A stretch of DNA of 64,000 nt from a phage. The notes under the pieces were generated by a model. That model had not been told where the DNA came from. It made no database searches and saw nothing but the letters and a program-made list of their open reading frames with translations. Location of the stretch: the sequence record NC_101838.1; one strand, 5' to 3'. This document shows, piece after piece, positions 21,595-60,089 of this stretch (its first letter is position 1; the number at the start of each line of letters is the position of its first letter). A program made the position numbers and the translations under genes.

Positions 21595-21607
21595 CATCAA
21601 AAACGTG

Positions 21608-46334: not shown

Positions 46335-46344
46335 GTATCGTGCC

Positions 46345-46677: not shown

Positions 46678-46698
46678 GAAAGTCCAGGAGATAAAGTT

Positions 46699-46944: not shown

Positions 46945-47134
46945 GCTTAAATCTGCATGGAACATCGCTGTGGGGGACGAGATCCGTATCCCAGGTGGAA
47001 AGACCATTATGAAAATATCTCGTATCGAGTACGAAGGTGATCGTGTATTTCATATCTTTGCAGAAGATGGTCGAGAAATTTATATACAGGCAGGCTCTCA
47101 CATCTATATTCGTAAGAAAGGGGAGGACAAATGA
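46937..47134 (+). CDS. hypothetical protein (65 aa)
   Basis: ATG after AAGGAAGG, overlapping upstream stop. Confidence 0.4.
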   Translation: MFKLKSAWNIAVGDEIRIPGGKTIMKISRIEYEGDRVFHIFAEDGREIYIQAGSHIYIRKKGEDK

Positions 47135-47460
47135 CAGAGATCATCATTTCAACTGCAGGGTATGTATTCCTGACAATCATTGCGCTGGCTATTCTGGTGG
47201 CGGTGTATGGATTTGTTATCCTTCCTATCCTTGAGACATTTAGTTTGTGTCGGTGTTGGAGAAAAGCTTACGGTCCACAACCATGGAAGGACTGGCCCCA
47301 CCTGGTGCGCTTAGCGTTCTCTTATGCTTACGATCACTCCAGTAGTGCATGCATAACCGGATACCACGCCCACAACTGGAGCTGGGAAGGGTTGAGGAAA
47401 TGGAATGTTACAAAGACCATACCTCTGCGCATGTACAAACCTAAAAACAAAGACAACTGA
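47131..47460 (+). CDS. small membrane protein (109 aa)
   Basis: ATGA overlap; N-terminal transmembrane segment. Confidence 0.45.
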   Translation: MTEIIISTAGYVFLTIIALAILVAVYGFVILPILETFSLCRCWRKAYGPQPWKDWPHLVRLAFSYAYDHSSSACITGYHAHNWSWEGLRKWNVTKTIPLRMYKPKNKDN

Positions 47461-47499
47461 TACTTGAAAATTCCTGGCATATCAAGTATAAGGGGGATT

Positions 47500-47960
47500 T
47501 CTAAAATGGATTTCCTCCTTTTGATATTTCACCGGGCTGGATATTTTAAAATTCTTAGAAAATCAGAAAATGGATCGAAAACTAAAATGGATTTTTCAGA
47601 GTAGGCGCGACAAGCTGAATAACTCATCCTATCGTTTGCACCATATTCCAGGCCACCATTATAGATTTCCCACACATGCTAACCTCCCTCTACTAGAACT
47701 TCCTCCACTTACCCTTGACCTTCTATGGTAACAATCTAACCGCTATCTTGAAGTTGCGGTGCAGCTTTCCAGGTACTCGATCTACTTTTCATTTCAGGGC
47801 TTGGATTTTCTGAAAATTTTTCTCGATAAATTTCTCAGTACTCGATCTGTTTTTCGTTTTCTGAATCGGATTTTCTGGAAATCGTTCCGGCTCTCAACCT
47901 GAAATTTTTGGGGACGAAATCGATTTTTCGTTTTCAGAAATGGATTTTTAAAATTTCTAT
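47500..47960. repeat. non-coding iteron-like region: at least 5 copies of TGGATTTT(T)C plus a 30-bp direct repeat
   Basis: AAATGGATTT(T)C-type motifs at about 47505, 47570, 47585, 47795, 47870, 47940; CAGGTACTCGATCT...TTTC repeated at 47770 and 47836; no ORF. Confidence 0.5.
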
Positions 47961-48063
47961 ATGGGAATATTTTAGTGGATACTATTTTATAGTAAATTGT
48001 TACGGAGGGTAATTAGCGTGCTAATTAAATTTATTAAATGCGAGGAGTTCTCATTTAGAATCT

Positions 48064-48290
48064 TGAATGATAATCATTCTCGTTTGCAGAATAACGGGCA
48101 GGCCCGGTGATTGTCTCCCGGCCCCTGTTGCCCCGGCTTGTTATTATAGTATCACACAGGACAAAGAAAGCAAGGATTTTTTGCATAAATTTTTAAATGA
48201 TAATGATAACCGTTCTCATTTTATGCAGCGCTCATCCCTGGTGGTTGTCTCCCCCGTCACCGGTGCCTGCCGTCCTTTCGATAGGTATAT
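48064..48290 (+). repeat. two tandem degenerate units, each ending in a GC-rich element containing TTGTCTCCC
   Basis: AATGATAAT...GCAG then CCCGGTGATTGTCTCCC (48103-48119) and GGTGGTTGTCTCCCCCGTCACCGGTGCCTGC (48241-48270). Confidence 0.45.
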
Positions 48291-48473
48291 TGTGCCACCT
48301 GTCGGGGCCGCTGTCAACACTTTTCAAAAAATTTTTCTAACCTGATGCGCTAACCGCTGCAACCTGGCGGGGCCAGCCTGGCAGGACCTAACTGACCAGG
48401 TGGGAGAGGGTGAAATCTTGCAAACCTGGTAGGCCCATGCTGTAGGGTAAACAATTGAAGAGGAGGTACAAAA

Positions 48474-48611
48474 ATGAAAGGTAATGCTACTCACCTGGGA
48501 AATGTAGTGATTAATGATACAGAAGCGCGGGAACATAAAGAAGAGTACGAAAAAATGGTGGTTAACCTGGCGGGGGGGCGGCAGGTGGATTCTATCATAA
48601 AAATAATTTAA
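48474..48611 (+). CDS. small hypothetical protein (45 aa), not in ORF track
   Basis: ATG 7 nt after GAGGAGG; open for 45 codons. Confidence 0.4.
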   Translation: MKGNATHLGNVVINDTEAREHKEEYEKMVVNLAGGRQVDSIIKII

Positions 48612-48619
48612 AATAATCG

Positions 48620-48647
48620 TTGACAACAAGGTTAATCATGGTATTAT
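48620..48647 (+). promoter_or_regulatory. sigma70-like promoter
   Basis: TTGACA - 16 nt - TATTAT. Confidence 0.4.
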
Positions 48648-48697
48648 TACCCTACAAGGTGAACAACACCGCACTAACCAGTAAAGAGGATAAATTT

Positions 48698-48895
48698 ATG
48701 AACGCATACGGGATCAAAGTACGTCGCAACACTCGCCAGGTGGTCACCGATCAAATGGTTTGCCAGGTGGACGTAACCATCAACAACGGGCAAGGCCTTT
48801 ATAAATTCCGTCGCGGTCAGAGCTATACCCGGCAACAGCTTAATCGTTGCGCCCTGACAAAAGGACAGATCAACCACTGGTTTAATAAAAAATAA
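48698..48895 (+). CDS. hypothetical basic protein (65 aa)
   Basis: ATG after AAAGAGGA; within ORF 48620..48895. Confidence 0.5.
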   Translation: MNAYGIKVRRNTRQVVTDQMVCQVDVTINNGQGLYKFRRGQSYTRQQLNRCALTKGQINHWFNKK

Positions 48896-48898
48896 GTA

Positions 48899-48927
48899 TT
48901 GACATATAGTCCGACACCAAATACACT
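48899..48927 (+). promoter_or_regulatory. sigma70-like promoter
   Basis: TTGACA - 17 nt - TACACT. Confidence 0.45.
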
Positions 48928-48959
48928 AAAAGCACAAAAGACACTAAGAGGATAAAATC

Positions 48960-49358
48960 ATGAAAACCACTACCTTTAATTTTGATAATGCGGACTTTTC
49001 TTTTTCTGATGTCAAGAACTGCCGCCGTGATCGTGGATTTTACAAGGCTTATAATCTGGTGGGCCTGGACGATGACAATAATTTGCACGAAGTAGCTGAG
49101 ATCCGGTATTATGCCGCCGTCAGCGGGAACACTCACTACTGCGTGTTTTGGATTCACGACAACAAGAACAATAAGTACGGTTATACTGGCGGCAAGGCGA
49201 GCGGTCACGGTTACGATAAAGCTAACGCAGCACTTGAGAGCGCATTAAATGCTATGGGGATCACTGCCGACGGCTGGATCTACGAAGAAGAGTTTTTGTC
49301 GGCACTTGCTGACCACCTGGGCTATAAAAAACACATTGTAACATGCGCCCACGAATAA
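48960..49358 (+). CDS. hypothetical protein (132 aa)
   Basis: AAGAGGA SD; own promoter. Confidence 0.55.
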   Translation: MKTTTFNFDNADFSFSDVKNCRRDRGFYKAYNLVGLDDDNNLHEVAEIRYYAAVSGNTHYCVFWIHDNKNNKYGYTGGKASGHGYDKANAALESALNAMGITADGWIYEEEFLSALADHLGYKKHIVTCAHE

Positions 49359-49364
49359 AAATCA

Positions 49365-49392
49365 TTGACACGCTGCAAAATTTAAGTAAACT
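49365..49392 (+). promoter_or_regulatory. sigma70-like promoter followed by 5' leader hairpin
   Basis: TTGACA - 16 nt - TAAACT; GGCGGGAA-TGT-TTCCCGCC hairpin at 49403-49421. Confidence 0.45.
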
Positions 49393-49440
49393 AGACACAA
49401 AAGGCGGGAATGTTTCCCGCCAGCACAAAGGAAAAAGATC

Positions 49441-49836
49441 ATGAATAAGAACGTACGCCGCATCATGAACGAACTGGCAAACGATGAAAAAATTATTGAT
49501 ATGCATTTGGTCAACATTTGCCGCCGTTGTGTAACATATAACAACCGCGCCGCAAAAGCGCGTGAGATGAACGCAAAAGGCACCTTAAAGCCCTTTCAGG
49601 TGGTTGTAAAATCTATAACTAGCGCAGCAGGCCAGGCGCAGGACCACAACAACGAGAGCGCTAATATTGATCCGTCTTACGTAATGAAACGGATCCGGAC
49701 TTGCAAGAATAAAGAGCAGGTATATAACGTCATAGATTGGCTGGACTCCCTGGGCGATGTGGTTTACAATAGGTTTTCTGCAGCTATCGAGATCCAGCTT
49801 GACAGATTGGACGGGAAAGTACTAAAAACTTATTGA
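49441..49836 (+). CDS. hypothetical protein (131 aa)
   Basis: AAAGGAAAAAG SD-like; ORF track. Confidence 0.55.
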   Translation: MNKNVRRIMNELANDEKIIDMHLVNICRRCVTYNNRAAKAREMNAKGTLKPFQVVVKSITSAAGQAQDHNNESANIDPSYVMKRIRTCKNKEQVYNVIDWLDSLGDVVYNRFSAAIEIQLDRLDGKVLKTY

Positions 49837-49838
49837 GT

Positions 49839-49883
49839 TTATTTTTAGATGGCCTTGACACCAGGGCCATCAATAAAGTAAAC
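49839..49883 (+). promoter_or_regulatory. 45-bp conserved element copy 1 (palindrome GATGGCC-N10-GGCCATC with TTGACA in loop)
   Basis: TTATTTTTAGATGGCCTTGACACCAGGGCCATCAATAAAGTAAAC; near-identical at 50460 and 54194. Confidence 0.5.
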
Positions 49884-49916
49884 TAACCACAGTTGAGCGG
49901 AAAAGGAGGCTTAAAG

Positions 49917-50036
49917 ATGAGCACTACACGCCAGCACACAAAGGTAACCATCATCGTTTGCATCATTGGGTACATCCTGGCGCAAATGTTGATGGGTAGC
50001 GCCAACGGTGTCGCAAAATTTTTCTTAAACTTTTAA
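49917..50036 (+). CDS. small hydrophobic protein (39 aa), not in ORF track
   Basis: ATG 6 nt after AAGGAGG; predicted single transmembrane helix. Confidence 0.4.
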   Translation: MSTTRQHTKVTIIVCIIGYILAQMLMGSANGVAKFFLNF

Positions 50037-50064
50037 TTGACAAGCTAACTTAAATCGATATAAT
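50037..50064 (+). promoter_or_regulatory. sigma70 consensus promoter followed by 5' leader hairpin
   Basis: TTGACA - 16 nt - TATAAT; GGGAA-AAC-TTCCC hairpin at 50077-50089. Confidence 0.6.
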
Positions 50065-50115
50065 AAGCACATAAACGGGAAAACTTCCCAGAACACACAA
50101 AAGGAGAAAAACACC

Positions 50116-50457
50116 ATGACTACTATGACCGCCTCAGAAAAAGCTATGCAGATCGCTGAACTGAAAAAACAGATCGCAGACCTTGAGAATAAGATCGATA
50201 ACTTTGAAATCGACGAGGACAAGTACGACGAAAACTATGATGAATGGTTAGACGAGATCTACGGCGAAATTATGATCGGAAACATTTCTTTTCTTCCGTC
50301 GCGTATCCTCAAGGAGCTAGATCCTATCGCTTACCGCTGCGGATTTAGCGACTACATCGACAGCCTGGATATTGAGGACGATGAAGAATACCAGGAATTA
50401 CAGACAGAGTTAGAAGAAGCAAAAGAAGAGCTTGCGGAGCTGGAAGAAAACGAGTAA
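50116..50457 (+). CDS. highly acidic small protein (113 aa)
   Basis: AAAAGGAGA SD; roughly 30 percent Asp+Glu, predicted coiled coil. Confidence 0.55.
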   Translation: MTTMTASEKAMQIAELKKQIADLENKIDNFEIDEDKYDENYDEWLDEIYGEIMIGNISFLPSRILKELDPIAYRCGFSDYIDSLDIEDDEEYQELQTELEEAKEELAELEENE

Positions 50458-50459
50458 GC

Positions 50460-50504
50460 TTATTTTTAGATGGCCTTGACACCAGGGCCATCAATAAAGT
50501 AAAC
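50460..50504 (+). promoter_or_regulatory. 45-bp conserved element copy 2
   Basis: Identical to copy 1 across about 44 nt. Confidence 0.5.
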
Positions 50505-50546
50505 TTTATACTGTTAACACTGAACTAATGCATAGGAGTTAAAACC

Positions 50547-50792
50547 ATGGCAGCACTAATCACCAAATATTATGCCCCTACCAACACCAAAAGCGCCCGT
50601 ATCATGGTAAAAGGCTTCGGACGTAAAAAGGTGTACACCTGGGATTATGCCTTAGACATGGAAGACAACTACACCAACGCAATGACCGATTTTATTAATG
50701 AACTAAATAAGCAGATCTTGACAAGTTATAAAGTGACCGATATTGCTTATATAGGTGAAGGCGGGATCTGTTTTGTAGGCATTGTGAAATAG
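50547..50792 (+). CDS. hypothetical protein (81 aa)
   Basis: TAGGAG SD. Confidence 0.5.
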   Translation: MAALITKYYAPTNTKSARIMVKGFGRKKVYTWDYALDMEDNYTNAMTDFINELNKQILTSYKVTDIAYIGEGGICFVGIVK

Positions 50793-50866
50793 TTATTTTT
50801 TCGGTGGTCCTGGCTGCAGGGCCATCTATAAAGATAATTTATCAACACCATGAAAGGAGAAAGTAC

Positions 50867-51220
50867 ATGATCAGCGGGGCTAGTTTTATTATTGGCGCTA
50901 TTGCTACGGCTTTAATTGTAAACAAGATCCAATCTAAAAACGAAAAAGATAGCAACGCGCTCACAGAATACCCATTTTGGGTATTCAACGACAACGAAGA
51001 CTACATAATCAAGTACAAAGATGAGAGAGGCGACCAGGTAACACCGCGACCGATCCCAGCTTACAAGATGCAGGAAACACTATACCGCCTAAAGGCCGGA
51101 GGCGCAAAGATCGTAGACTTTTGGGGATATGATTGCAAGGATCAGGAGGTCATAAAACGTCGTATCCGGGCGATTCAGGCAAATATTGAAATTAGTAAAG
51201 GGGAAATTTATGAAAATTAA
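50867..51220 (+). CDS. membrane protein (117 aa)
   Basis: ATG after GAAAGGAGAAAG; N-terminal transmembrane helix. Confidence 0.5.
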   Translation: MISGASFIIGAIATALIVNKIQSKNEKDSNALTEYPFWVFNDNEDYIIKYKDERGDQVTPRPIPAYKMQETLYRLKAGGAKIVDFWGYDCKDQEVIKRRIRAIQANIEISKGEIYEN

Positions 51221-51407
51221 TTTCGAAAAAATTGTAAAGCGCCCCCACGATTCCGAAGAGCTGCCGGAACGCCGCCAGCGTAACAATAAACTGAATAAAC
51301 CGAAAAGGTTCGGGAAGATCTGGAGGAATCACTATGATCGCAAATTACCGGGCCTGCTTTTGGAACGTGAACGACAGGCGGAACGATACCGCCACAAAGG
51401 CAAATAA
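51210..51407 (+). CDS. small basic protein (65 aa)
   Basis: ATG after AAAGGGGA, overlaps upstream gene end. Confidence 0.35.
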   Translation: MKINFEKIVKRPHDSEELPERRQRNNKLNKPKRFGKIWRNHYDRKLPGLLLERERQAERYRHKGK

Positions 51408-51415
51408 CAACCAAC

Positions 51416-51442
51416 GCCCCGCCATTGTGCGGGGCTTTTTAT
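51416..51442 (+). terminator. intrinsic terminator
   Basis: GCCCCGC-CATTGT-GCGGGGC followed by TTTTTATTT. Confidence 0.55.
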
Positions 51443-51577
51443 TTCTATCCTACGAATAGCGCCCCTGGTTGGCCCCACAAACGCCACAAAAGCCCCTACC
51501 TATGCAATCCCCTTTCTTAGCCTGAAAACATCACCCAGGACCGTTTTATGGTGTTAAAAATATCTTTTATTTAAAGC

Positions 51578-51606
51578 TTGACACCTTGGAATCGCCTGGA
51601 TATACT
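51578..51606 (+). promoter_or_regulatory. sigma70-like promoter
   Basis: TTGACA - 17 nt - TATACT. Confidence 0.5.
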
Positions 51607-51641
51607 AACCACATCAAAGCAAGAAGAAAGGAGTAAACGCC

Positions 51642-51902
51642 ATGCGTAAATTAAAAAATTTTGATAAAGTCGATGTTGTCCTGAATAATTTTTACTACTG
51701 CAATAATAAGGCCGTTTGGTGGCGTGATAGTTCCACCGATAAAGTTAAAGCGCGCTTTCTCCAGGGGCACTGGCAAGGCCGCCCAGTGATTAAGATCCGG
51801 GGGCAATTGGTAGCGTTTAAAAATTGCCGCCGTGTTGATGACGTTGAAGAGATTCTAAACATTTTACGCCACAATAATTTAAAAAATAGTGTTGACAAGT
51901 AA
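51642..51902 (+). CDS. hypothetical protein (86 aa)
   Basis: AAAGGAG SD. Confidence 0.5.
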   Translation: MRKLKNFDKVDVVLNNFYYCNNKAVWWRDSSTDKVKARFLQGHWQGRPVIKIRGQLVAFKNCRRVDDVEEILNILRHNNLKNSVDK

Positions 51903-51919
51903 GCCTCAATAAGTATACT
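51892..51919 (+). promoter_or_regulatory. sigma70-like promoter followed by 5' leader hairpin
   Basis: TTGACA - 16 nt - TATACT overlapping upstream stop; GGCGGGAA-AAC-TTCCCGCC at 51930-51948. Confidence 0.5.
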
Positions 51920-51976
51920 TAAACACACAGGCGGGAAAACTTCCCGCCACTAACAAAGAAAATAGGAGAAAATATC

Positions 51977-52600
51977 ATGACCACCGTTAACATTACCGCA
52001 GGTTACAATTTATCTTTCGACGTGCTGACCGACGAACAAAAAGAAAAAGCCGTTGAAATGGTCCGCGAAAGAGAAGAACACAGCGGGGATAACTTTTTTG
52101 CAGAAAGTGTAATTGAATACTATAAAGAATATGTTTTTCCAGAGTATGGCCTTGAAGATACCGAAGTACATTGGTCAGGCTTTTGGTGCCAGGGTGACGG
52201 CGCGTCAATCAGTGCTGAAAACGTGGATTTAGAAAAATTTTTGCGTAAAGTAAAGGCCCTGACCAAGTTCCGATCAATTCGTCACTTGTTCGGCACAATG
52301 CACGATGGCGAGTTATCAGCCAGTGTTGAGCGTGATCCATATAGCCGCTATAGTCACGAAAACACTGTAAGCGGATACATTGATACCACCTGGCTAGATC
52401 TGACCGCCAAACAAGAAAACAAAGTGGAAGACCTGGAAGAGCTGATCACCGAGACGGTACGGGAGCTATCCCGCAAGGTTTACGTAGACCTGGAGGAGGC
52501 CTATCTTGAACAGTTTACTACCGAAAACCTGATCGGCCTTATTGAGGCCAATGATTGGCGGTTTGATGTGGATGAATATGGCGAGATGACTTTTTCATAA
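51977..52600 (+). CDS. acidic hypothetical protein (207 aa)
   Basis: ATAGGAGA SD; ORF track. Confidence 0.55.
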   Translation: MTTVNITAGYNLSFDVLTDEQKEKAVEMVREREEHSGDNFFAESVIEYYKEYVFPEYGLEDTEVHWSGFWCQGDGASISAENVDLEKFLRKVKALTKFRSIRHLFGTMHDGELSASVERDPYSRYSHENTVSGYIDTTWLDLTAKQENKVEDLEELITETVRELSRKVYVDLEEAYLEQFTTENLIGLIEANDWRFDVDEYGEMTFS

Positions 52601-52608
52601 ATAAAGTG

Positions 52609-52636
52609 TTGCAATAACCTAAAAACCTGCTATATT
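52609..52636 (+). promoter_or_regulatory. sigma70-like promoter followed by 5' leader hairpin
   Basis: TTGCAA - 16 nt - TATATT; GGGGCAA-GACGT-TTGCCCC at 52647-52665. Confidence 0.45.
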
Positions 52637-52689
52637 AAAACTCAAGGGGGCAAGACGTTTGCCCCACACAAAACAAAGAGGAAAACATT

Positions 52690-53070
52690 ATGAAAAACAC
52701 TACCAAGGCTATTGACACCGTTATGTTTAACCTGGTTACATTCCGTGAAGATATGAAAGATCTTCCACGTGAAACAGTGTGCGATCACATTGAAAACTAT
52801 CGCAAACTAATCAAAGAGTTGCCCCTAAAACGTGACCAGTATGCGGCTAACGCTATGCTCAACGCCATGATCAAAAAGATGATCCAGTGTGATTTAACCC
52901 TGGCCTATGACTATGCGGGTGGTCGTTTTGCAGTATACAATCAGCCCGTGCCTGGTATGGGCACCACCGAAGAATTGCACGCGCTCAATCTAAAACAAGA
53001 CGTATGGGATAACATGCCCCGCGTGGTGGTGTGGGCAGAAAGCGGAAAGATTTACGGCGATAATTTTTAA
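52690..53070 (+). CDS. hypothetical protein (126 aa)
   Basis: AAAGAGGA SD. Confidence 0.55.
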   Translation: MKNTTKAIDTVMFNLVTFREDMKDLPRETVCDHIENYRKLIKELPLKRDQYAANAMLNAMIKKMIQCDLTLAYDYAGGRFAVYNQPVPGMGTTEELHALNLKQDVWDNMPRVVVWAESGKIYGDNF

Positions 53071-53079
53071 TCAGGTAAC

Positions 53080-53106
53080 AGGCGGCAAATATGCCGCCTT
53101 ATTGTT
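53080..53106 (+). terminator. putative intrinsic terminator
   Basis: AGGCGGCA-AATA-TGCCGCCT followed by TATTGTT. Confidence 0.45.
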
Positions 53107-53134
53107 AAACAGAACTGCAAAAGAGGTACATAGA

Positions 53135-53506
53135 ATGGAATTTATTATTTTGGCTGTAGTAGTTGCCTTGTTCAACGCCTGGATCGCTGGCAAGATGGGT
53201 AGATCCGCCTTTTTATGGTTTATTATATCTATTTTCCTGGGGGTGGTTGCAACTATTGTACTTGTTATCCTTGCAATTGTTGACAAGGGGAATAATAGAA
53301 AGGGTAAAGTATTTTCAGACCTGTACGACGCTCAAACGTTTGTCAACGCCTATTATAGTGATCTTCCAGTCTCCCTACGCTGCAGCCTGGCACAACAAGT
53401 TTTCGATGAGGCTAAAACCAGAGATCAAGCCCATGAGATATGTTTAACTGAGGCGGATCGCCTATTTGAGAGGAATAGAAAATATGTGGGCCAACCGTTT
53501 AAATAA
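53135..53506 (+). CDS. membrane protein (123 aa)
   Basis: ATG after AAAGAGG; two hydrophobic helices. Confidence 0.5.
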   Translation: MEFIILAVVVALFNAWIAGKMGRSAFLWFIISIFLGVVATIVLVILAIVDKGNNRKGKVFSDLYDAQTFVNAYYSDLPVSLRCSLAQQVFDEAKTRDQAHEICLTEADRLFERNRKYVGQPFK

Positions 53507-53725
53507 TGCCACGTTAATTAATCCCTTTAGTGAAGATTTGAAGCCAGCCGCCTGGCGTGATGGATTCAATAACGAACGCTTTATTTTCAAGCCTGATCTT
53601 GAGGAATTTTATAACAATGGATCGAACAACGACAGAGATAATTTTTCTTGTGGTGTGCGTAGTGATGGTACTCCTGGGGGCCATTGTAAACCACGTCACT
53701 ACTAACAGGGGGAAAGGGGGAGACG

Positions 53726-53845
53726 ATGACACCCAAGGATAAGCCCCGCACCGATAAGGCGCGCCGTGTTATGGTATGGCTTGAGATCATCGCCCTTGAA
53801 ATATTGTTAGGGGTAGGGATGTACTTTATCGCTGTAAGTAACTAA
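53726..53845 (+). CDS. small membrane protein (39 aa), not in ORF track
   Basis: ATG after GGGGGAGACG; hydrophobic C-terminal half. Confidence 0.35.
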   Translation: MTPKDKPRTDKARRVMVWLEIIALEILLGVGMYFIAVSN

Positions 53846-53849
53846 GAAC

Positions 53850-53878
53850 GGCCCCCCGATCATGGGGGCCTATCTTTT
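53850..53878 (+). terminator. intrinsic terminator
   Basis: GGCCCCC-CGATCAT-GGGGGCC followed by TATCTTTT and an A14 tract. Confidence 0.55.
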
Positions 53879-53905
53879 AAAAAAAAAAAAAATTCTTCCG
53901 GGGTG

Positions 53906-53934
53906 TTGCAATCCGGTCCGGAATGTGGATAATA
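53906..53934 (+). promoter_or_regulatory. sigma70-like promoter followed by leader hairpin
   Basis: TTGCAA - 16/17 nt - GATAAT; GGGGA-GCTAA-TCCCC downstream. Confidence 0.4.
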
Positions 53935-53989
53935 ACAATCAACGGGGAGCTAATCCCCACCACCACAAAAACCAGAAAGGAGAAACAAA

Positions 53990-54190
53990 ATGAGCAACAA
54001 TATCCGCGTTATTAACTTCAAAAAAGAAGAAAAAATTGCCGTGCTGATTGACGGTCAAGAAATCTTCAAGGGCGACTATGAAGATCATCAAACGGCGATT
54101 AGTATCACTCGCGTGATTGGTTACCATAATTTTTACCCCCAAGGCGCTGAGGCAGCGGTTAAACGAATCAAAGAGATTGTAGGCCTGTAA
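53990..54190 (+). CDS. hypothetical protein (66 aa)
   Basis: AAAGGAGAAA SD. Confidence 0.5.
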   Translation: MSNNIRVINFKKEEKIAVLIDGQEIFKGDYEDHQTAISITRVIGYHNFYPQGAEAAVKRIKEIVGL

Positions 54191-54193
54191 AAT

Positions 54194-54236
54194 TTATTTT
54201 TAGATGGCCTTGACTCCAGGGCCATCAATAAAGTAA
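54194..54236 (+). promoter_or_regulatory. 45-bp conserved element copy 3
   Basis: TTATTTTTAGATGGCCTTGACTCCAGGGCCATCAATAAAGTAAA, one mismatch to copies 1 and 2. Confidence 0.5.
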
Positions 54237-54284
54237 ATTTAAACCCTGTTAAAAATACCACGCAGTTAACAAGGAGTGATAGAC

Positions 54285-54584
54285 ATGTTTATCCAGGCTA
54301 ATAATCTTTATTTCTTTGATGGTCAGATCGTAGACGGTGTGGAAGTGGAGATCACCGGGTGCCCTGGCGGTCAGGCTATGACTTTTCGGAATAATGCCTT
54401 TGATGATTCTCATATCGTTATGAGAATGGAAGTTACGAAGCTGGACGACAAGAAAACACTTATTGACTATTCTGTGAAAGATCATCCAGACTACCGCATG
54501 ATCCATGGCGATTTGTGCATTGTTGACCGTGACAAGGTGGGCGGCATTGTGATCGCTATTGTGAACGATGTTTTCTCAAACTAA
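54285..54584 (+). CDS. hypothetical protein (99 aa)
   Basis: ATG after AAGGAG. Confidence 0.5.
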   Translation: MFIQANNLYFFDGQIVDGVEVEITGCPGGQAMTFRNNAFDDSHIVMRMEVTKLDDKKTLIDYSVKDHPDYRMIHGDLCIVDRDKVGGIVIAIVNDVFSN

Positions 54585-54601
54585 TTTCAGCAGGTGATTT
54601 T

Positions 54602-54952
54602 ATGAAAGTCAAACTATATTACCTTAATGAGCTTAACCCCCTTGCCCAGGTCCGCGCCCTAGCTAATACCTTGATTTGTGAGAAATCTGCATATTGTGTT
54701 GAGCTTAACGCCATGCGTGAACGTCTCAAAGGGGGTTACTTTGACATCCATGCTGCAATCAACGGCCTGAATATGGAATTTATACGCTTACGTAACAGCC
54801 GCCGGAATCTGGCAAGAATGGAACAAGATCCGGCCCACCTTCGTAAGCTGGTTATTGAAAATCATCTGATGTTTAATGCCGAGGGTGATTATTACCATTT
54901 TCACCGCAAACGCTGGTACCGTGGCGGCAATACAGGCAAGAATGCAAAATAA
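54602..54952 (+). CDS. hypothetical basic protein (116 aa)
   Basis: ORF track. Confidence 0.5.
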   Translation: MKVKLYYLNELNPLAQVRALANTLICEKSAYCVELNAMRERLKGGYFDIHAAINGLNMEFIRLRNSRRNLARMEQDPAHLRKLVIENHLMFNAEGDYYHFHRKRWYRGGNTGKNAK

Positions 54953-54987
54953 GGCCCCAGGCAGGGCCTGCAGCGATATAATCACAT

Positions 54988-55021
54988 AAAGGCTATGCGG
55001 TTGCATGGCCTTTATTATTTT
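54988..55021 (+). terminator. putative intrinsic terminator
   Basis: AAAGGCTATGC-GGTT-GCATGGCCTTT followed by ATTATTTT. Confidence 0.45.
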
Positions 55022-55072
55022 AGCGTTACAGCGGCCCCAAGGCGCTTAAAAAAAAAATTTTTAAAGAAGTAC

Positions 55073-55101
55073 TTGCATCAAGTCCTACAATATGGATAAT
55101 A
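55073..55101 (+). promoter_or_regulatory. sigma70-like promoter followed by G-rich leader hairpin
   Basis: TTGCAT - 16/17 nt - GATAAT; GGGGGGCGGCCCCC downstream. Confidence 0.4.
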
Positions 55102-55157
55102 GGACGTGTCAGGGGGGCGGCCCCCAATCATTAACCGGATAGATAGGAGTTAAAATC

Positions 55158-55442
55158 ATGACTATTGTCACCGTTGGCGATGTAGTGGAAATGGAAGCAA
55201 AATACTTAAAAGCGGGTATGCATATCCTACGGAATGATCAAGAATTGTTATTAACGATGGTAGACTATAATCCCGGCCAGGATTATCCAAGCATCGACTA
55301 CTTTTTTGAGTATGTTGATGAAGAATTGAAAGAGGATGAGGCTTATCAGGGTGAATTCTGCAATTTCTTTTGCCCTGATGAGGTTGTAAAAGTTATCTAT
55401 CAACCTGGAGTACCTTTCCCGCTGCACGCTATCAATAAATAA
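55158..55442 (+). CDS. hypothetical acidic protein (94 aa)
   Basis: TAGGAG SD. Confidence 0.5.
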   Translation: MTIVTVGDVVEMEAKYLKAGMHILRNDQELLLTMVDYNPGQDYPSIDYFFEYVDEELKEDEAYQGEFCNFFCPDEVVKVIYQPGVPFPLHAINK

Positions 55443-55496
55443 ACCTGGTGGGGCCGAAAAGGCCCCAATTATGAAAATAAAGAGAGGTAAATCATC

Positions 55497-55730
55497 ATGA
55501 TGGAACAAATTAAACGCGCTGAGTCTATTAATGGCAATGTGATCTATTTTGTCAGCAAAAACGAAAAAGGCGTACCATATGCGGCGGTAATAGTACAACC
55601 TGACGGCGATTATTGGTTTACTGTATACGGATCTTATTCTTTCGGGCGTCCGGTTCATGATAGAATTTTGAAAGTAGCAAATCCGACCGGGAAAAATATC
55701 ACAGCAGAAAAATTTTTTGAAAATAGTTGA
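55497..55730 (+). CDS. hypothetical protein (77 aa)
   Basis: AGAGAGG SD. Confidence 0.5.
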   Translation: MMEQIKRAESINGNVIYFVSKNEKGVPYAAVIVQPDGDYWFTVYGSYSFGRPVHDRILKVANPTGKNITAEKFFENS

Positions 55731-55754
55731 CATGACCATATAAGACTGTAATAT
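55727..55754 (+). promoter_or_regulatory. sigma70-like promoter followed by G-rich leader hairpin
   Basis: TTGACA - 16 nt - TAATAT overlapping upstream stop; GGGGC-AACAA-GCCCC downstream. Confidence 0.5.
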
Positions 55755-55807
55755 ATAAATCAAAGGGGGGGCAACAAGCCCCACCAACCACAAAGAGGAT
55801 AAAAATC

Positions 55808-55987
55808 ATGGCTATTATTGCAAAGACTGAGATCGTAGGCTTAGATTCTATTCTCCTCGCATATGAGGAAGCTATAGAAATGTATGTGGTTTCCTATGGT
55901 GAGTATATTCGTGAATATAAATCTATTGATCTGGCTTTTGAATGTTATATTCGCCAGGTTAATAAAGCGTACGATGATTATCGTTAA
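55808..55987 (+). CDS. small hypothetical protein (59 aa), not in ORF track
   Basis: ATG after AAAGAGGA; open for 59 codons. Confidence 0.4.
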   Translation: MAIIAKTEIVGLDSILLAYEEAIEMYVVSYGEYIREYKSIDLAFECYIRQVNKAYDDYR

Positions 55988-56077
55988 AATAGTTTGACAA
56001 CAAACAACCATCTAACAAAGCATAATACATAAGGCGGTGGAATGGTCCGCCACCTGGAACAAGAAGAGGAAAACAAG

Positions 56078-56182
56078 ATGAAACAGAAATTAATTGATGC
56101 GGTGATCCTGGTTATTGCCCTGGGTATTGGCCTGATTGCAACCATGGCTAATATGATCTTGTCTTCCAACGGTATCGGGTGA
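56078..56182 (+). CDS. small membrane peptide (34 aa), not in ORF track
   Basis: ATG after AAGAAGAGGA; single hydrophobic helix. Confidence 0.3.
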   Translation: MKQKLIDAVILVIALGIGLIATMANMILSSNGIG

Positions 56183-56191
56183 GGTTGGCAA

Positions 56192-56407
56192 ATGATCACT
56201 AACAAAACAGGCAAAACAGAATTTTTACGCAACTTACAGATCGGTAAGTCTGAGATCTGGTATTGCACTAAAACACCCCGTGACGAAATGAAAGACTTCA
56301 CCGCCACGCTGCAACGGGTAAAGATATCCATCACGCAGAAAAAGGCCTTACTAGTGGTGGAAGGTGAGATCCCCCAAACCGTTGTTATAGTTGAGCGTAC
56401 AGCATAG
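56192..56407 (+). CDS. hypothetical protein (71 aa)
   Basis: ORF track. Confidence 0.45.
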   Translation: MITNKTGKTEFLRNLQIGKSEIWYCTKTPRDEMKDFTATLQRVKISITQKKALLVVEGEIPQTVVIVERTA

Positions 56408-56498
56408 TTTAATTTATACAGATACCTTAAAATTAACCAACAAAGCATAAACAGGCGGTTACCGCCGCCTTAAACGTAGCAGAAAGAGGATAGACACA

Positions 56499-56783
56499 AT
56501 GAAAAAGATGATCGCAGTTGTTGCCCTGGTTGTTGGACTTAATGCGCCTGTAATGGCTAAAGAGCTGGCAAAAGAGGTTAATCTAACGGATATTCATGCC
56601 GTCAATCAAATAGGGGTTACTTATCGCTTATGCCTTGCCGCTAAAACTTTTAAGGACGGCACAACAGAGTACTACGGCTTCGAGGGTGTCCGGTGCGGTG
56701 AACTTGCTCGCGACCTTAAAGAAGATCCAGACCTGGAAGATCTGCCCATCACCGTAAATGGTAAAGCTTACGTAAACCGTTAA
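56499..56783 (+). CDS. secreted/periplasmic small protein (94 aa)
   Basis: Signal peptide MKKMIAVVALVVGLNAPVMA; AAAGAGGA SD. Confidence 0.5.
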   Translation: MKKMIAVVALVVGLNAPVMAKELAKEVNLTDIHAVNQIGVTYRLCLAAKTFKDGTTEYYGFEGVRCGELARDLKEDPDLEDLPITVNGKAYVNR

Positions 56784-56785
56784 CC

Positions 56786-56920
56786 ATGAGAAAGATAATC
56801 ATCACCTTGGGGATTGTGGCGGGATCGCTGGCGCTCTTTCTCCTTATGGTTAGGTATGTGCTGATCGGTATTGTCCTGGTAGTCAGCGATCTGTTGGAAA
56901 CGGTTGGCACCTTGTTTTAA
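56786..56920 (+). CDS. small membrane protein (44 aa), not in ORF track
   Basis: ATG 2 nt after upstream stop; hydrophobic. Confidence 0.3.
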   Translation: MRKIIITLGIVAGSLALFLLMVRYVLIGIVLVVSDLLETVGTLF

Positions 56921-56932
56921 AGAGCGGTAAAA

Positions 56933-57124
56933 ATGAATATCGAACAAGTTAGAAAGGTATTGGCGGTACTGCGTTATCATAATCATAGAAAGGTCATAGA
57001 CGATCCTGATTATGTCGATTCAAGCCTGGAAGGGGATACACTACAAGCCATAAGTAACATGCAAGAATTGCTAAAGCGCATGACAGAGAAAAACCGACCG
57101 GACTACATAGGCGAAAAAATATAA
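56933..57124 (+). CDS. hypothetical protein (63 aa)
   Basis: ORF track. Confidence 0.45.
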   Translation: MNIEQVRKVLAVLRYHNHRKVIDDPDYVDSSLEGDTLQAISNMQELLKRMTEKNRPDYIGEKI

Positions 57125-57138
57125 TCCTTATAAACTAC

Positions 57139-57168
57139 AAAACAGGGCTTGCAATGGTCCTGTTTTTT
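57139..57168 (+). terminator. intrinsic terminator
   Basis: AAAACAGG - 12 nt loop - CCTGTTTT followed by TTTGTTA. Confidence 0.5.
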
Positions 57169-57185
57169 GTTATACTTGTTTCACG

Positions 57186-57233
57186 GCAGGCACCTGGCGA
57201 CGGGGGGGGGAGACAATCACCGGGTGTGCCTGC
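57186..57233. repeat. GC-rich inverted-repeat element with G9 tract (inverted copy of the 48.1/48.25 kb elements)
   Basis: GCAGGCAC...GGGGGGGGGAGACAATCACCGGG...GTGCCTGC; its reverse complement matches 48103-48119 exactly over 17 nt and 48243-48270 closely. Confidence 0.5.
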
Positions 57234-57255
57234 TATATAAAAACTATAAAAACCG

Positions 57256-57284
57256 TTGACATCTGCCAGGTGGTGGGGTAGCAT
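57256..57284 (+). promoter_or_regulatory. sigma70-like promoter
   Basis: TTGACA - 17 nt - TAGCAT; G-rich leader hairpin follows. Confidence 0.35.
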
Positions 57285-57339
57285 TTATCTCGAAGGGGGC
57301 AAAAGCGCCCACACAACAACTGGAAGAGAGGAAAACGCC

Positions 57340-57612
57340 ATGTTAAGCTGGATTAACCAAGAAGTTGAATCACGTTTTAATGCTATTTGGGATCTCATCG
57401 AAAAAGAGGACGGAACATCAAGCCCTTATCTCAATAATCTTGAATTCCATTTCGTGGAAGCGATGAACGCAGAACATGATCACGAAGGTGGTGCGGATGA
57501 ATTCGCTAAAGGATATGGCTTCAACAATGCCAACGAAATGATCGAGGCGGTTGTACTCCAGGCTGAGGAAGATTATCAATTAAAAACGCTTGAATTCTGC
57601 CGCCGTAAGTAA
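57340..57612 (+). CDS. hypothetical acidic protein (90 aa)
   Basis: ATG after GAAGAGAGGAAAA within ORF 57256..57612. Confidence 0.5.
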   Translation: MLSWINQEVESRFNAIWDLIEKEDGTSSPYLNNLEFHFVEAMNAEHDHEGGADEFAKGYGFNNANEMIEAVVLQAEEDYQLKTLEFCRRK

Positions 57613-57674
57613 TAAGATAATGACACGGGCCAAAAGGCCCACTAAACAAAAACCACATAAAGAGGAAAAACATC

Positions 57675-57938
57675 ATGAAACGCCTTGATCAGCTCAAATT
57701 AGTTCAATATATGGCTTATCGTGTTCTTGAAGTCCAGAAAGGTAGCAAAAAAGAGGTTTGCGAGAAAGCTTATAAGATCTTCACTCGCAAAAAAGATGAC
57801 TGGATGCTGCGCCAGACTAAAAAGGCTGACATCTTGGGGTACCTGGAAGAAGAGATCCGCCTTGAAGAGCAAGAAGAGATCCGCCGTAGTGAGGCAGATT
57901 ATCAGGCAGCTTGGGAAAACTGGATGAGCAACAAATAA
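57675..57938 (+). CDS. hypothetical protein (87 aa)
   Basis: AAAGAGGAAAA SD. Confidence 0.5.
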   Translation: MKRLDQLKLVQYMAYRVLEVQKGSKKEVCEKAYKIFTRKKDDWMLRQTKKADILGYLEEEIRLEEQEEIRRSEADYQAAWENWMSNK

Positions 57939-58003
57939 TACAACAAGTTACGGTCAGGGGGTAATAAAGCCCCTTGATCACATAAAAATTATGCTATCCC
58001 TGG

Positions 58004-58032
58004 TTGACAGGGATCGGCAGTTTTGCTATATT
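58004..58032 (+). promoter_or_regulatory. sigma70-like promoter
   Basis: TTGACA - 17 nt - TATATT. Confidence 0.5.
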
Positions 58033-58081
58033 CTTTTTTGAAGGGAAGTTGTAAGAAAATTAACTAAGAGGTAAAAACACC

Positions 58082-58501
58082 ATGAACATTAAATCTAATA
58101 ATCCGGCATATAGCTTTGATAACGCTTTTTGTCACGGTCCGGCGGCGAAAGGATTCGAAATCGATGGTAAACTAATTATTGTCAATGTTGACGGGGAAGA
58201 GGTTGCAGTATATCCGGTGGCAGACGTAAAAAGCCGTTTACAATGCCGCATGGATGTTACCGCCTATCAGCTTGATCCGGTTCGCATAGTTGCCCTGGTC
58301 CTGGAAGAAGAAATTAAAGCCATGCACCATAGCAACAGGTTTATTGGTGACGCTCAGGATAATATGAAGGTGTGCCGCCATAAAGTTAATGAAGTGCTTA
58401 AAGAGTACGGCTATAAAGATCTTATGATCAAACGTGATGAAAAATTCCGCTACCGTAACGACCTGGCAAATCGGATTTTTGAAATATACGAATCATTATA
58501 A
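58082..58501 (+). CDS. hypothetical protein (139 aa)
   Basis: TAAGAGG SD. Confidence 0.55.
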   Translation: MNIKSNNPAYSFDNAFCHGPAAKGFEIDGKLIIVNVDGEEVAVYPVADVKSRLQCRMDVTAYQLDPVRIVALVLEEEIKAMHHSNRFIGDAQDNMKVCRHKVNEVLKEYGYKDLMIKRDEKFRYRNDLANRIFEIYESL

Positions 58502-58519
58502 TTTTTTAACTGAATTATC

Positions 58520-58545
58520 AAGGGGCTTAGCCCCTTTCTTTTTGT
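58520..58545 (+). terminator. intrinsic terminator ending the rightward small-gene module
   Basis: AAGGGGC-TTA-GCCCCTT followed by TCTTTTTGT. Confidence 0.6.
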
Positions 58546-59149
58546 CTGCTCTTCCCCCTACCATAAACGGCCCTACCTGGAAAGTGGAATAATTGACGAG
58601 CCATCAATCCCACACACTGTACAAACATACATGTAAAATAGCTATTGCATAACCTTTCATTGTGTGGTAGCGGTGCTATTTTTTACCAGTTTTCCTTCCA
58701 AAATTGCACGTAATGCAGCTATTGCATAAATTTTAACCTGATGCATATCTTCAATATCTTGTCAACAAATAAAAATTCTTATAAGTCATACACTTATACC
58801 CCCACAAAAGCGTTCTCTACGTGAAAAATCGGGCATAACTATAGCCGCCAGATCTCAGAATTTACGTACGCTCGCCATTCTATAGCCTGCTAAGTATTTA
58901 TTCCAACCATAGAATAATGGAATAGTCAATACCTGAATAAAATAATTATTCGTTTAAACTGCATAACATAAATCAGCTCAGGTGTCAACATTTTTCGTAA
59001 ACAGTCTTAAATTGTCACTGTGAGTTATCATAAACAGAGAAATCTTTAGTCGTCTAATGTTTACTGTACGTTACTATACTGACTGGAATCATTAGATGAC
59101 TAATAGAAAGATAAGAAATAATTAACGATACAATTATTTTACCTGTAAC

Positions 59150-59400
59150 AATAAGGCAACTATGCAAACGAATGGCATGGCGCGACGGAGTCGCGACATA
59201 ATATAAAAGCAGTAACCATCACCCCCGTGATAGTTTGTCTGCAAACTATTAATCAGATCATAGTTGCCTTGTATTTAGTTAATCATGACATAACAAGCAA
59301 GGCAACTATAGATCTTCTAATAGTTGCCCTGCTTTTATATTATGTCATGCTAATTATAATCAGTGCGATTATTGTCATGCAAACGAATGGCATGGCTTAT
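59150..59400. repeat. non-coding region of nested direct and inverted repeats
   Basis: 20-bp direct repeat ATGCAAACGAATGGCATGGC at 59162 and 59377; 18-bp inverted repeat GACATAATATAAAAGCAG at 59195 / 59329; GGCAACTAT in alternating orientation 4 times; palindrome CGCGAC-GGA-GTCGCG. Confidence 0.5.
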
Positions 59401-59458
59401 CATCTCTGTGTAAACAATCTATGCGTGAACAGTGAAACATGAAATAATAACAGTCGTT

Positions 59459-59515
59459 ATTGTGTCAAGTATTCCGATTGTGTCACCATTGTGTCTAAAG
59501 TGTCATATTGTGTCA
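59459..59515. repeat. iteron array: 5 copies of (T/A)TTGTGTCA at about 10-bp spacing
   Basis: TATTGTGTCA 59459, GATTGTGTCA 59477, CATTGTGTCT 59487, AAAGTGTCA 59497, TATTGTGTCA 59506. Confidence 0.5.
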
Positions 59516-60089
59516 GACAAGTTTTTCTCCTCTTTGTCAAGTGCTGCATGAAAAATTTACAAACTGGTATGGTAGCATTTTTGCGGACCTGTTTACATTC
59601 AGGAGTGTATGTATAATCCTTGTTGTGTGGGCGTTTATACGTCTGGACGGTCAGAAGTCTGCAGGTTAATATCTAATCTATTGGCTGCTAACTATATCCC
59701 ACACAAATGATAAGAAATATAATTGTTATATGCGTAAACTGTAACTCATGTTATCAATCCCTGTATGGATCGCCAGTGGTGCGCATAATGGGTATTATGT
59801 TAAATTGCCCGTAATGATAAAGGTTCTCACAATGATAGGTATTCTCATTCACCCTCACAAAATAGATTGCAAATGTTGTGCCACTGTGTGAACGGCCTCA
59901 CCTATTAATTTGCCTCACTGCCTCGATATTTGAGAATTATTATAAGAATGAGAAGTATTCCCATTCCGTCCGCCTGGCAGCACTCCTGTAGGTCCTGCAA
60001 GGACTCTAGCTTTCAGCTAGACCCTTCGGGCCTCCCTGTAGGTCAGGTCAAAATCGGGGTAGAATTGGGCCTATTCAGATATTTCTGGC

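Follow-up and report, generated by a model that had tools for sequence, protein, structure and literature searches.

How are some thirty small genes lying near one end of a phage genome expressed, and what is the hairpin that so often follows their promoters? The question was raised by 64,000 nucleotides of phage DNA from sequence record NC_101838.1 (the window), in which one region carries the genes named here g1–g29:

48474–58545, + strand: small-gene array g1–g29, an early-type variable module with products of 34–207 amino acids (aa)

Over its full length this region was 94–96% identical to Vequintavirus (rV5-like) myophages of E. coli (nom, FFH2, Murica and rV5 variants), and all the 228 database records that match it annotate it as 26–30 hypothetical proteins. 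By this similarity the window is that of a Vequintavirus (rV5-like) coliphage, and the module is a variable small-gene array at one genome end. The 29 curated genes (48474–58501) are all on the + strand and each has an ATG and a Shine–Dalgarno (SD) sequence; the median product is 86 aa, 28 of the 29 products are shorter than 140 aa and the coding share of the region is 77%, which agrees with a first-pass annotation, made from the letters alone, of about 30 small genes.

We found that ten of these genes are preceded by a sigma-70 promoter followed, at a nearly fixed distance, by a GC-rich hairpin that is conserved in structure while its sequence varies in four phage genera and that is nearly confined to this module, with crossovers between relatives inside these units. 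The explanation that we favour, as probable and well short of certain, is that these are standardised expression cassettes, the hairpin of which most likely prolongs mRNA life and the shared patches of which drive cassette exchange.

Promoters and the hairpin downstream of them

A consensus scan of 46000–60500 gave 61 promoter-like sites against 34.2 ± 5.9 in shuffled sequences, and 14 of the 16 sites scoring at least 10/12 were on the + strand. Fifteen genes (g2–g7, g10–g12, g16, g17, g21, g22, g27 and g29) are preceded, within the spacer upstream of them, by a promoter scoring 9/12 or more, six of these promoters scoring at least 11/12, and weaker ones lie upstream of g19 and g28. The earlier claim that many genes have their own TTGACA-type promoter thus holds for about 17 of them. 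Genes outside the layouts described here (type A, type B, plain promoter and hairpin only) have no promoter of their own and are operonic.

In the main layout, named type A, a sigma-70 promoter is followed by a GC hairpin of 5–9 bp, an A/C-rich unstructured leader of 20–30 nt with a strong SD, and the ATG. It was found at ten genes (g4, g6, g11, g12, g16, g19, g21, g22, g27 and g28). The first-pass annotation had ascribed such a promoter–hairpin–SD unit to most genes; all the hairpins it cited were located, but the full unit precedes only about 10 of the 29. The units are as follows, with the gap measured from the −10 box to the stem and P numbers referring to rV5:

49365–49440, + strand: type-A unit of g4; TTGACA at 49365, 16-nt spacer, TAAACT ending at 49392; ATG 49441; P194
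49403–49421, + strand: g4 hairpin, GGCGGGAA tgt TTCCCGCC; gap 10 nt; followed by an A/C-rich leader with SD
50037–50115, + strand: type-A unit of g6; consensus TTGACA-16-TATAAT; ATG 50116; P192
50077–50089, + strand: g6 hairpin (weak), GGGAA aac TTCCC; gap 12 nt; match to RNA model R1 with E 0.046
51892–51976, + strand: type-A unit of g11; TTGACA-16-TATACT, gap 10 nt; ATG 51977; P185
51930–51948, + strand: g11 hairpin, GGCGGGAA aac TTCCCGCC
52609–52689, + strand: type-A unit of g12; TTGCAA-16-TATATT with extended TG, gap 10 nt; ATG 52690
52647–52665, + strand: g12 hairpin, GGGGCAA gacgt TTGCCCC
53880–53989, + strand: type-A unit of g16; TTGCAA at 53906, 16-nt spacer, GATAAT, gap 10 nt; hairpin 53944–53958; ATG 53990
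55047–55157, + strand: type-A unit of g19; weak TTGCAT at 55073, 16-nt spacer, GATAAT ending at 55100; ATG 55158
55112–55125, + strand: g19 hairpin; gap 11 nt
55727–55807, + strand: type-A unit of g21; TTGACA-16-TAATAT, gap 10 nt; ATG 55808; P174
55765–55785, + strand: g21 hairpin, core 55768–55782
55994–56077, + strand: type-A unit of g22; TTGACA with a weak −10 AAGCAT; hairpin 56032–56055; ATG 56078; an insertion hot spot
57256–57339, + strand: type-A unit of g27; TTGACA-17-TAGCAT, gap 10 nt; hairpin 57295–57310; ATG 57340; P168
57590–57674, + strand: type-A unit of g28; weak TTGAAT-17-TAAGAT (8/12); hairpin 57627–57640, GGGCC aaaa GGCCC

The gap was exactly 10 nt in six units (49365, 51892, 52609, 53906, 55727 and 57256) and 8–12 nt in those of g6, g19, g22 and g28. 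When a unit was defined by a first paired base 8–12 nt after the −10 box and dinucleotide shuffles were used as controls, the + strand of the window had 10 units where 1.26 were expected, and the − strand had 1 where 0.9 were expected. GC hairpins were 5.7 times denser between genes (20 in 2.29 kb) than within them (12 in 7.78 kb), and G–C pairs with the G in the 5′ arm numbered 175 against 55 C–G pairs. The predicted leaders fold as a single 5′ hairpin followed by unpaired RNA (z −2.6 to −5.0), as had been proposed for the predicted 5′ ends from the cited stems.

The promoters and terminators of this module have already been published for rV5, as P164, P168, P174, P185, P186, P192, P194 and P195 and as t164, t177, t181 and t184 (Table S4, PMC3606486). 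That paper of 2013 gives the −35/−10 boxes only, with sequences that stop 7–8 nt after the −10 box, and a paper on the Certrevirus phages CB7, CR3, CR8 and CR9 describes a clustered sigma-70-like early promoter with an UP element (PMC7344957); neither mentions a hairpin downstream.

The same unit was found in three further genera, ahead of small genes mostly unrelated to g1–g29. Phapecoctavirus ESCO5 (Stephanstirmvirinae) has, in 12.4 kb, 13 TTGACA-16/17-TAnnnT promoters, each followed by a hairpin at a gap of 10–11 nt, with the unit consensus nnnYCACRTA-GGGCGG..., and Seunavirus KE22 and Certrevirus CR3 have 8–10 promoter–hairpin units each. In the shuffle test 9 units were counted in ESCO5 (0.66 expected), 5 in KE22 (0.80 expected) and 6 in CR3 (0.82 expected), and none on the three minus strands (0.76 expected in total). 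CR3 (L021) also contains, at 1721–1760 and 4534–4573, two cassettes with the hairpin in the promoter spacer, TTGACC-GGGGCCgggttaGGCCCC-ATAATA.

A curated set of 42 type-A units from the four genera (Vequintavirus, Seunavirus, Certrevirus and Phapecoctavirus) was then compared. The gap had a mode of 10 nt, with 36 of the 42 units within 8–11 nt. Its standard deviation was 1.6 nt against 4.3 nt for the distance from stem to start codon (median about 21 nt), so the hairpin is tied to the promoter and not to the start codon. The seventh position after the −10 box is C in 29 of the 42 units and the eighth a purine in 35, and positions 11–13 are G. A pyrimidine followed by a purine is the preferred context for a transcript start. 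Since this C-then-purine step is conserved and the gap has its mode at 10 nt, the predicted mRNA would begin with the purine 8 nt after the −10 box, 3 nt before the stem, and would have two more free nucleotides before a stem that starts at about +4. We infer that the stem begins as near to the start as an open promoter complex would permit.

The 42 units contain 38 distinct hairpins and 32 distinct 5′ arms. In an alignment-free test in which 3′ halves were exchanged among units, the native hairpins had a mean of −11.3 kcal/mol and the chimeras −7.1 kcal/mol, and none of 2000 permutations was as low. An alignment fitted to the RNA model R1, which contains some − strand and weak rows, had 95.7% of its cells paired, both-sided changes in 6 of 8 pairs and a covariation score of 0.277 against 0.092 when shuffled; none of 500 shuffles scored as high and slid controls collapsed. 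RNAalifold found no consensus structure in a MAFFT alignment of 32 units, in which stems and loops of unequal length were misaligned. Among 12 close relatives (the relatives used in this work are GenBank phage records, to which a protein-anchored IMG/VR search added only two close loci), the mean pairwise difference was 0.009 in the −35 box, 0.056 in the −10 box and 0.077 in the stems, against 0.129 in the spacer, 0.141 in the leader and 0.231 in the loops. Thus, the element is conserved as a hairpin-forming structure and not as a sequence, and action at the RNA and at the DNA level are both compatible with the data.

Between relatives, the loops of g4 and g12 and the whole g24 hairpin flip to their reverse complement while the stems are kept. 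The flips were seen in L003, L011, L013, L014, L015 and L018, as tgt/aca at 49411–49413, gacgt/acgtc at 52654–52658 and, at 56453–56470, AGGCGGTTACCGCCGCCT versus AGGCGGCGGTAACCGCCT, the exact reverse complement. Such small inversions are of the type that template switching produces at palindromes.

The hairpin marks a promoter subset that hardly occurs outside this module. In the related phage nom, the remaining 79 kb has many promoters scoring at least 11/12, none of them with a convincing GC hairpin at the type-A position, and the window has only one further type-A unit outside the module:

31174–31260, + strand: type-A unit outside the module; TTGACT-17-TAAGAT, gap 11 nt, hairpin GGGGAGG cact CCTCCCC

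What the hairpin may do

In the explanation that we favour, host RNA polymerase would fire each cassette early in infection, and the hairpin would form close to the 5′ end of the mRNA made from the cassette itself and, in read-through RNA, between cistrons. It would there hinder the 5′-end-dependent attack by RppH and RNase E and block 3′ exonucleases, giving the mRNA a longer life, and would keep the ribosome-binding site independent of its context. The coupling of the hairpin to the promoter rather than to the start codon and the irrelevance of the stem sequence argue for such a role at the 5′ end of an RNA. It is known that a 5′-terminal stem-loop blocks RppH, and that RppH and RNase E require at least two unpaired 5′ nucleotides and prefer at least three (PMC8833179). 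By analogy, mRNA stabilisation by the 5′ stem-loop is plausible. The window also encodes, on its − strand (20557–21597), a protein of 346 aa with matches to the PHROG families 'decoy of host sigma70' (E 3e-15) and, more weakly, 'Srd anti-sigma factor' (E 3e-10), as well as to an HNH-labelled family. In T4, the Srd protein stimulates the attack of RNase E on host mRNA, phage mRNA being stabilised meanwhile (PMC4980113), and a link of this kind between an Srd-like protein and RNase E may bear on why early mRNAs carry 5′ hairpins.

Several observations weigh against this explanation. Three free nucleotides suffice for RppH and RNase E, and scanning RNase E bypasses simple stem-loops (PMC9943677), so the protection would be partial at best. 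Close orthologues, the divergence of which is too small, show no compensatory double changes, and the covariation therefore comes from paralogous and cross-genus units and from a model-fitted alignment. G·U wobbles and A·C mismatches numbered 9 versus 6 among the units and 6 versus 15 among the orthologues, which does not favour an RNA of the + strand. Template switching in DNA can also keep palindromes complementary, and the loop inversions show such events here. A literature search, one query of which was poorly framed, returned no transcriptome or start-site study of any Vequintavirus. Furthermore, two hairpins occur without a promoter and three promoters without a hairpin:

55449–55467, + strand: hairpin only, upstream of g20; intercistronic, GGGGCC gaaaa GGCCCC, without recognisable promoter
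56453–56470, + strand: hairpin only, upstream of g24; without sigma-70 promoter; fully inverted in FV3, Mangalyan and HMD-6
48620–48647, + strand: plain promoter of g2; TTGACA-16-TATTAT with extended TG, without hairpin
48899–48927, + strand: plain promoter of g3; TTGACA-17-TACACT, without hairpin; P195 in rV5
51578–51606, + strand: plain promoter of g10; TTGACA-17-TATACT, without hairpin; P186 in rV5

The strand count would also suit palindromes that are DNA operators, centred near +13, at which a phage or host protein switches the module off or on in the passage from early to middle expression. Their position relative to the start is like that of classical operators that block promoter clearance, of which lacO1 is one; four genera share the arm GGCGGGAA/TTCCCGCC, or GGGCGG, and the element is restricted to one co-regulated module. 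We regard this as improbable, as the 32 different 5′ arms, stems of 5–9 bp or more and loops of 3–6 nt leave half-site spacing and sequence inconstant, hairpins are inverted or their loops altered between relatives in an unchanged context, and no candidate regulator was identified.

A wider idea, put forward tentatively and considered unlikely, is that the +4 hairpin is the mark of an immediate-early regulon common to Vequintavirinae and Stephanstirmvirinae. It would be read, as RNA or as DNA, by a trans-acting factor that shields or times the marked transcripts, and it would define a pool of cassettes exchangeable between unrelated coliphages. For example, the factor could spare marked transcripts while the Srd-like protein turns RNase E on host mRNA.

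Other candidates were tried and rejected. As terminators for antisense transcription the hairpins have − strand tails that are only partly T-rich, and not T-rich in ESCO5-type units. Antitermination RNAs such as lambda boxB or HK022 put do not fit loops that vary (tgt, aac, gacgt, gctaa, gcgg, aacaa, atgg, aaaa) and invert, and a search of Rfam matched no family. Hairpin promoters of the N4 type were set aside because a virion RNA polymerase is missing and the promoters are canonical sigma-70 ones. A role in helping promoter escape was set aside as well, since the hairpin can form only after escape.

A second layout, type B, was not part of the first-pass annotation: the −35 box lies inside a hairpin. 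It or a similar arrangement precedes 4–5 genes, as a long two-tier hairpin after the upstream stop codon. A 49-nt type-B repeat (family D1) has copies at 49836, 50457 and 54191 with 94–98% identity and a diverged copy at 50791, and folds as an imperfect palindrome of about 10 + 10 bp with an internal loop (ΔG −22 to −25 kcal/mol, z −5.8 to −7.8):

49836–49884, + strand: type-B cassette upstream of g5; 49 nt, two-tier, ΔG −25 kcal/mol; −35 TTGACA in or beside the apical loop and −10 TAAACT in the 3′ basal arm
50457–50505, + strand: type-B cassette upstream of g7; 98% identical to 49836–49884; partner in the g5–g6 deletion
50791–50839, + strand: type-B variant upstream of g8; −35 box lost; fold kept via G·U pairs, ΔG −22.4 kcal/mol, z −5.8
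54191–54239, + strand: type-B cassette upstream of g17; 94% identical to 49836–49884
57996–58032, + strand: g29 promoter, TTGACA-17-TATATT; P164 in rV5; −35 box in the loop and 3′ arm of the hairpin 57996–58014 (ATCCCTG gttga CAGGGAT), the stem of which is unrelated to D1

Because the copy at 50791 has lost its −35 box and keeps its fold through G·U pairs, the type-B structure is probably important in its own right, apart from the promoter, in RNA transcribed from upstream.

The array is split into transcription blocks by six hairpins with a T-tract, which bear out the earlier statement that terminators punctuate the module (t numbers are those of rV5):

51416–51445, + strand: intrinsic terminator after g9; GCCCCGC..GCGGGGC then TTTTTATTT
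53080–53108, + strand: intrinsic terminator after g12; t184
53850–53879, + strand: intrinsic terminator after g15; t181
54986–55024, + strand: intrinsic terminator after g18, preceded by a hairpin at 54952–54969; t177
57139–57175, + strand: intrinsic terminator after g26; hairpin with T-tract
58520–58545, + strand: module-closing intrinsic terminator; with the hairpin 57953–57978, the crossover site for g29 loss; t164

A/T tracts at 53880–53897 and 55047–55066 lie immediately upstream of the weak −35 boxes TTGCAA and TTGCAT of two promoters that both follow terminators, and look like UP elements.

It is possible, though in our view not likely, that the hairpins act on transcripts derived from upstream, as attenuators or terminators that insulate the units or as 3′ barriers that stabilise the upstream cistron. 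Each hairpin is 45–90 nt past the preceding stop codon, those of type B, g20 and g24 lie in RNA of upstream origin only, and the variant at 50791 has kept its structure after losing its promoter. In addition, attenuation is the interpretation given by the authors of the PeSL (promoter-early stem-loop) cassettes of T4-type phages, the stem-loop of which cut lacZ expression like a strong terminator (PMC2839356). However, the GC hairpin and immediate U-tract of an intrinsic terminator are found together in the six hairpins listed above, with 5–8 T in the 9 nt after the stem, and not in the type-A and type-B hairpins, which have 0–3. The stem-loops of the PeSL phage phi1 overlap the promoter core, which is a different layout, and type A is locked to the promoter at +4 and not to the upstream stop codon, a feature that a role at the 3′ end alone leaves unexplained. 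Roles at the 3′ end and at the 5′ end are compatible with each other.

Cassette exchange and gene content of the array

Alignment with 12 relatives revealed a mosaic with recurrent gene-sized differences. Phage ime and a metagenomic contig (L002) lack both g5 and g6, the deletion running exactly between two copies of the 49-nt type-B repeat. Five relatives lack g29, and the slur16 junction is a chimeric hairpin, of which the left arm derives from 57953 and the right arm from the 58520 terminator. Five relatives have a 265-nt gene insertion, at the flanks of which 28 nt of the g28 leader (57641–57668) are repeated; at the flanks of a 291-nt insertion, present in three relatives, the repeat measures 32 nt and spans the SD and first codons of g22. 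At a hot spot (56038–56126), one to three complete cassettes are present in slur16, naswa, Mangalyan, FV3, HMD-6 and one IMG/VR contig; they consist of a promoter, a GTATyryrTAGGGCGG-type hairpin and a small open reading frame, and are nearly identical to cassettes of ESCO5. The loss of g18 resembles an illegitimate deletion and is not bounded by cassettes. Dispersed repeats include D1 (four copies, 73–98% identity), D13 (76% over 38 nt) and the leader families D4–D6. These comparisons of sequences demonstrated the cassettes to be repeated recombination modules, swapped between phages by crossovers inside them.

Crossovers within hairpins and cassettes, together with the inverted loops and hairpins and the lack of compensatory changes in orthologues, would also fit hairpins that have no role in expression and are self-maintaining palindromes or linkers that promote recombination, the arms of which are kept complementary by within-strand template switching. 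We consider this very improbable, because selection on expression seems needed to account for a position that stays at +4 in four genera, for a conserved C-then-purine start context and for the lack of the hairpin at other promoters of the same genome, and because the stems are 2–3 times less variable than loops and leaders. In the explanation by expression cassettes, the similar promoters, hairpins and leaders would serve as homology patches, at which recombination would insert, delete and exchange single-gene cassettes within and between lineages.

The products of all 29 genes matched PHROG families, each labelled 'unknown function', and g1–g29 are therefore taken as real conserved phage genes. 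It had been noted that none of the products belongs to a recognisable family; this held for the 28 without a Pfam match and failed for g9 (51210–51407), which matched PF08200 (Phage_1_1, bacteriophage T7 protein 1.1, gp1.1) at 42.1 bits, above the gathering cut-off of 21 (E 1.2e-10). The function of the PF08200 family is itself unknown. The largest product, of g11 (51977–52600, 207 aa), has the invariant residues G68, F69, Q72–A76 (QGDGA), R119 and H127, and its family is also present, at 60% identity, in coliphages of about 350 kb. Its AlphaFold model was confident (pLDDT 87), and a structure search of the PDB with this model, the only product modelled, returned no fold relative. Sequence searches of the PDB with g3, g4, g11 and g29 found no relatives, and a tRNA search found none.

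Phage Gotham is annotated with a 459-bp repeat at either end, in two identical copies, and the equivalent sequence was located in the window:

59516–59974, strand not applicable: equivalent of the Gotham terminal repeat, 95% identical to it

Because the Gotham repeat maps there, the module would end about 1 kb short of the physical genome end, with transcription heading towards that end. The first-pass annotation had called the region early-type, and the dense host-type sigma-70 promoters, small genes of unknown function, terminators and the distance of about 1 kb from the terminal repeat support it; the rV5 and Certrevirus papers also call the equivalent regions early or accessory (PMC3606486, PMC7344957). 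We infer an early timing of the module from these features. The 29 proteins are candidates only for a role in host takeover or anti-defence.

A second array occupies 91–103 kb of phage nom (L023; equivalent to 60000–64000 of the window, − strand), with about 38 small hypothetical genes that converge on the module. Judged from the Gotham repeat, two convergent small-gene arrays flank the physical genome ends and both are transcribed towards them. The second block in nom has strong sigma-70 promoters and no +4 hairpins, and the phage thus has two classes of early-type promoter. The AT-rich non-coding sequence 58545–59500 contains further short repeats (families D15 and D17). On the other side of the module, a stretch of about 1 kb with no convincing open reading frame (47460–48473) contains three direct repeats of about 47–57 nt at 47763–47948, with spacings of 65 and 74 nt, followed by a GC-rich segment with a strong fold (48346–48473; ΔG −41.6 kcal/mol over 128 nt). 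The repeats and the folded segment (47763–48473) could be a non-coding RNA or an array of binding sites.

Phages of the rV5 and phAPEC8 types are widely used for therapy and biocontrol, and a quarter of their genes lie in such arrays, the function and regulation of which are unknown. The signature TTGACA-16/17-TAnnnT, 10 nt, GC hairpin can be used to find probable immediate-early accessory genes, which are candidates for takeover and anti-defence functions, and the cassettes also offer small expression parts for E. coli with an insulation of natural origin. That the position is fixed at +4 and limited to a single module provides a testable question about the fate of phage mRNA under RNase E manipulation.

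Comparison with known systems

The early region of T7 has RNase III sites between its genes, and the type-B hairpins resemble them in their predicted fold, as long two-tier structures (about 10 + 10 bp with an internal loop) between early cistrons. Unlike the RNase III sites of T7, the type-B hairpin has a promoter inside it.

In ompA of E. coli, a hairpin within 2–4 nt of the 5′ end reportedly stabilises the mRNA, and the T7 gene 10 leader also has a 5′ hairpin. The 5′-terminal stem-loops of ompA and papA are mRNA stabilisers, as reportedly described by Emory in 1992 and by Bouvet and Belasco in 1992 (both listed in PMC3997798). Type A is similar in having a stable hairpin of arbitrary sequence a few nucleotides from the predicted 5′ end, followed by a single-stranded leader and the ribosome-binding site. 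That structure and not sequence matters, as in the ompA type, is borne out here by the 32 different 5′ arms, the arm-swap test and the covariation count. It differs from the ompA type in being a modular element, repeated before at least ten genes, and in the three unpaired nucleotides at its predicted 5′ end.

The nearest relatives in organisation are the PeSL cassettes of the T4-type phages RB49, phi1, PST and nt-1 (Arbiol 2010, PMC2839356; Comeau 2014, PMC4122927), which are composites of a promoter and a stem-loop upstream of orphan genes in variable regions and mediate modular shuffling; excision as mini-circles is also ascribed to them. As in PeSL, a strong sigma-70-type early promoter lies beside a stem-loop of G-run and C-run ahead of small orphan genes; the cassettes are clustered in a variable region, with copies similar enough to recombine; and cassettes form the borders of indels that distinguish close relatives, the crossovers falling within the stem-loop or beside it. 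PeSL belongs to Straboviridae (T4-type myoviruses), whereas the lineage here is that of Vequintavirinae and Stephanstirmvirinae. Five positional subclasses of PeSL have been described, most often with the stem-loop inside the spacer or covering the −10 box, the fifth being 'downstream of -10, just before the start'; type A, at +4 to +22, lies past this fifth subclass, and type B, with the −35 box in the loop, fits the PeSL logic.

When the topology was measured in phi1, 16 promoter-associated GC hairpins were found, 8 of which fill the −35/−10 spacer and 6 hold the −10 box in the loop; in 14 of the 16 the start lies 14–25 nt ahead of the point where the −10 box ends, and a start at +9 was seen only once. 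In the main class here, 10 nt separate the hairpin from the −10 box in front of it, which places the hairpin within the transcript of its own unit. Provided that the element is real, composites of promoter and stem-loop occur beyond the T4-type phages and would serve large lytic phages in general as a means of keeping and exchanging accessory genes. By this comparison, the cassettes of the Vequintavirus array are close analogues of PeSL, with a distinct and fixed type-A topology, in new phage lineages.

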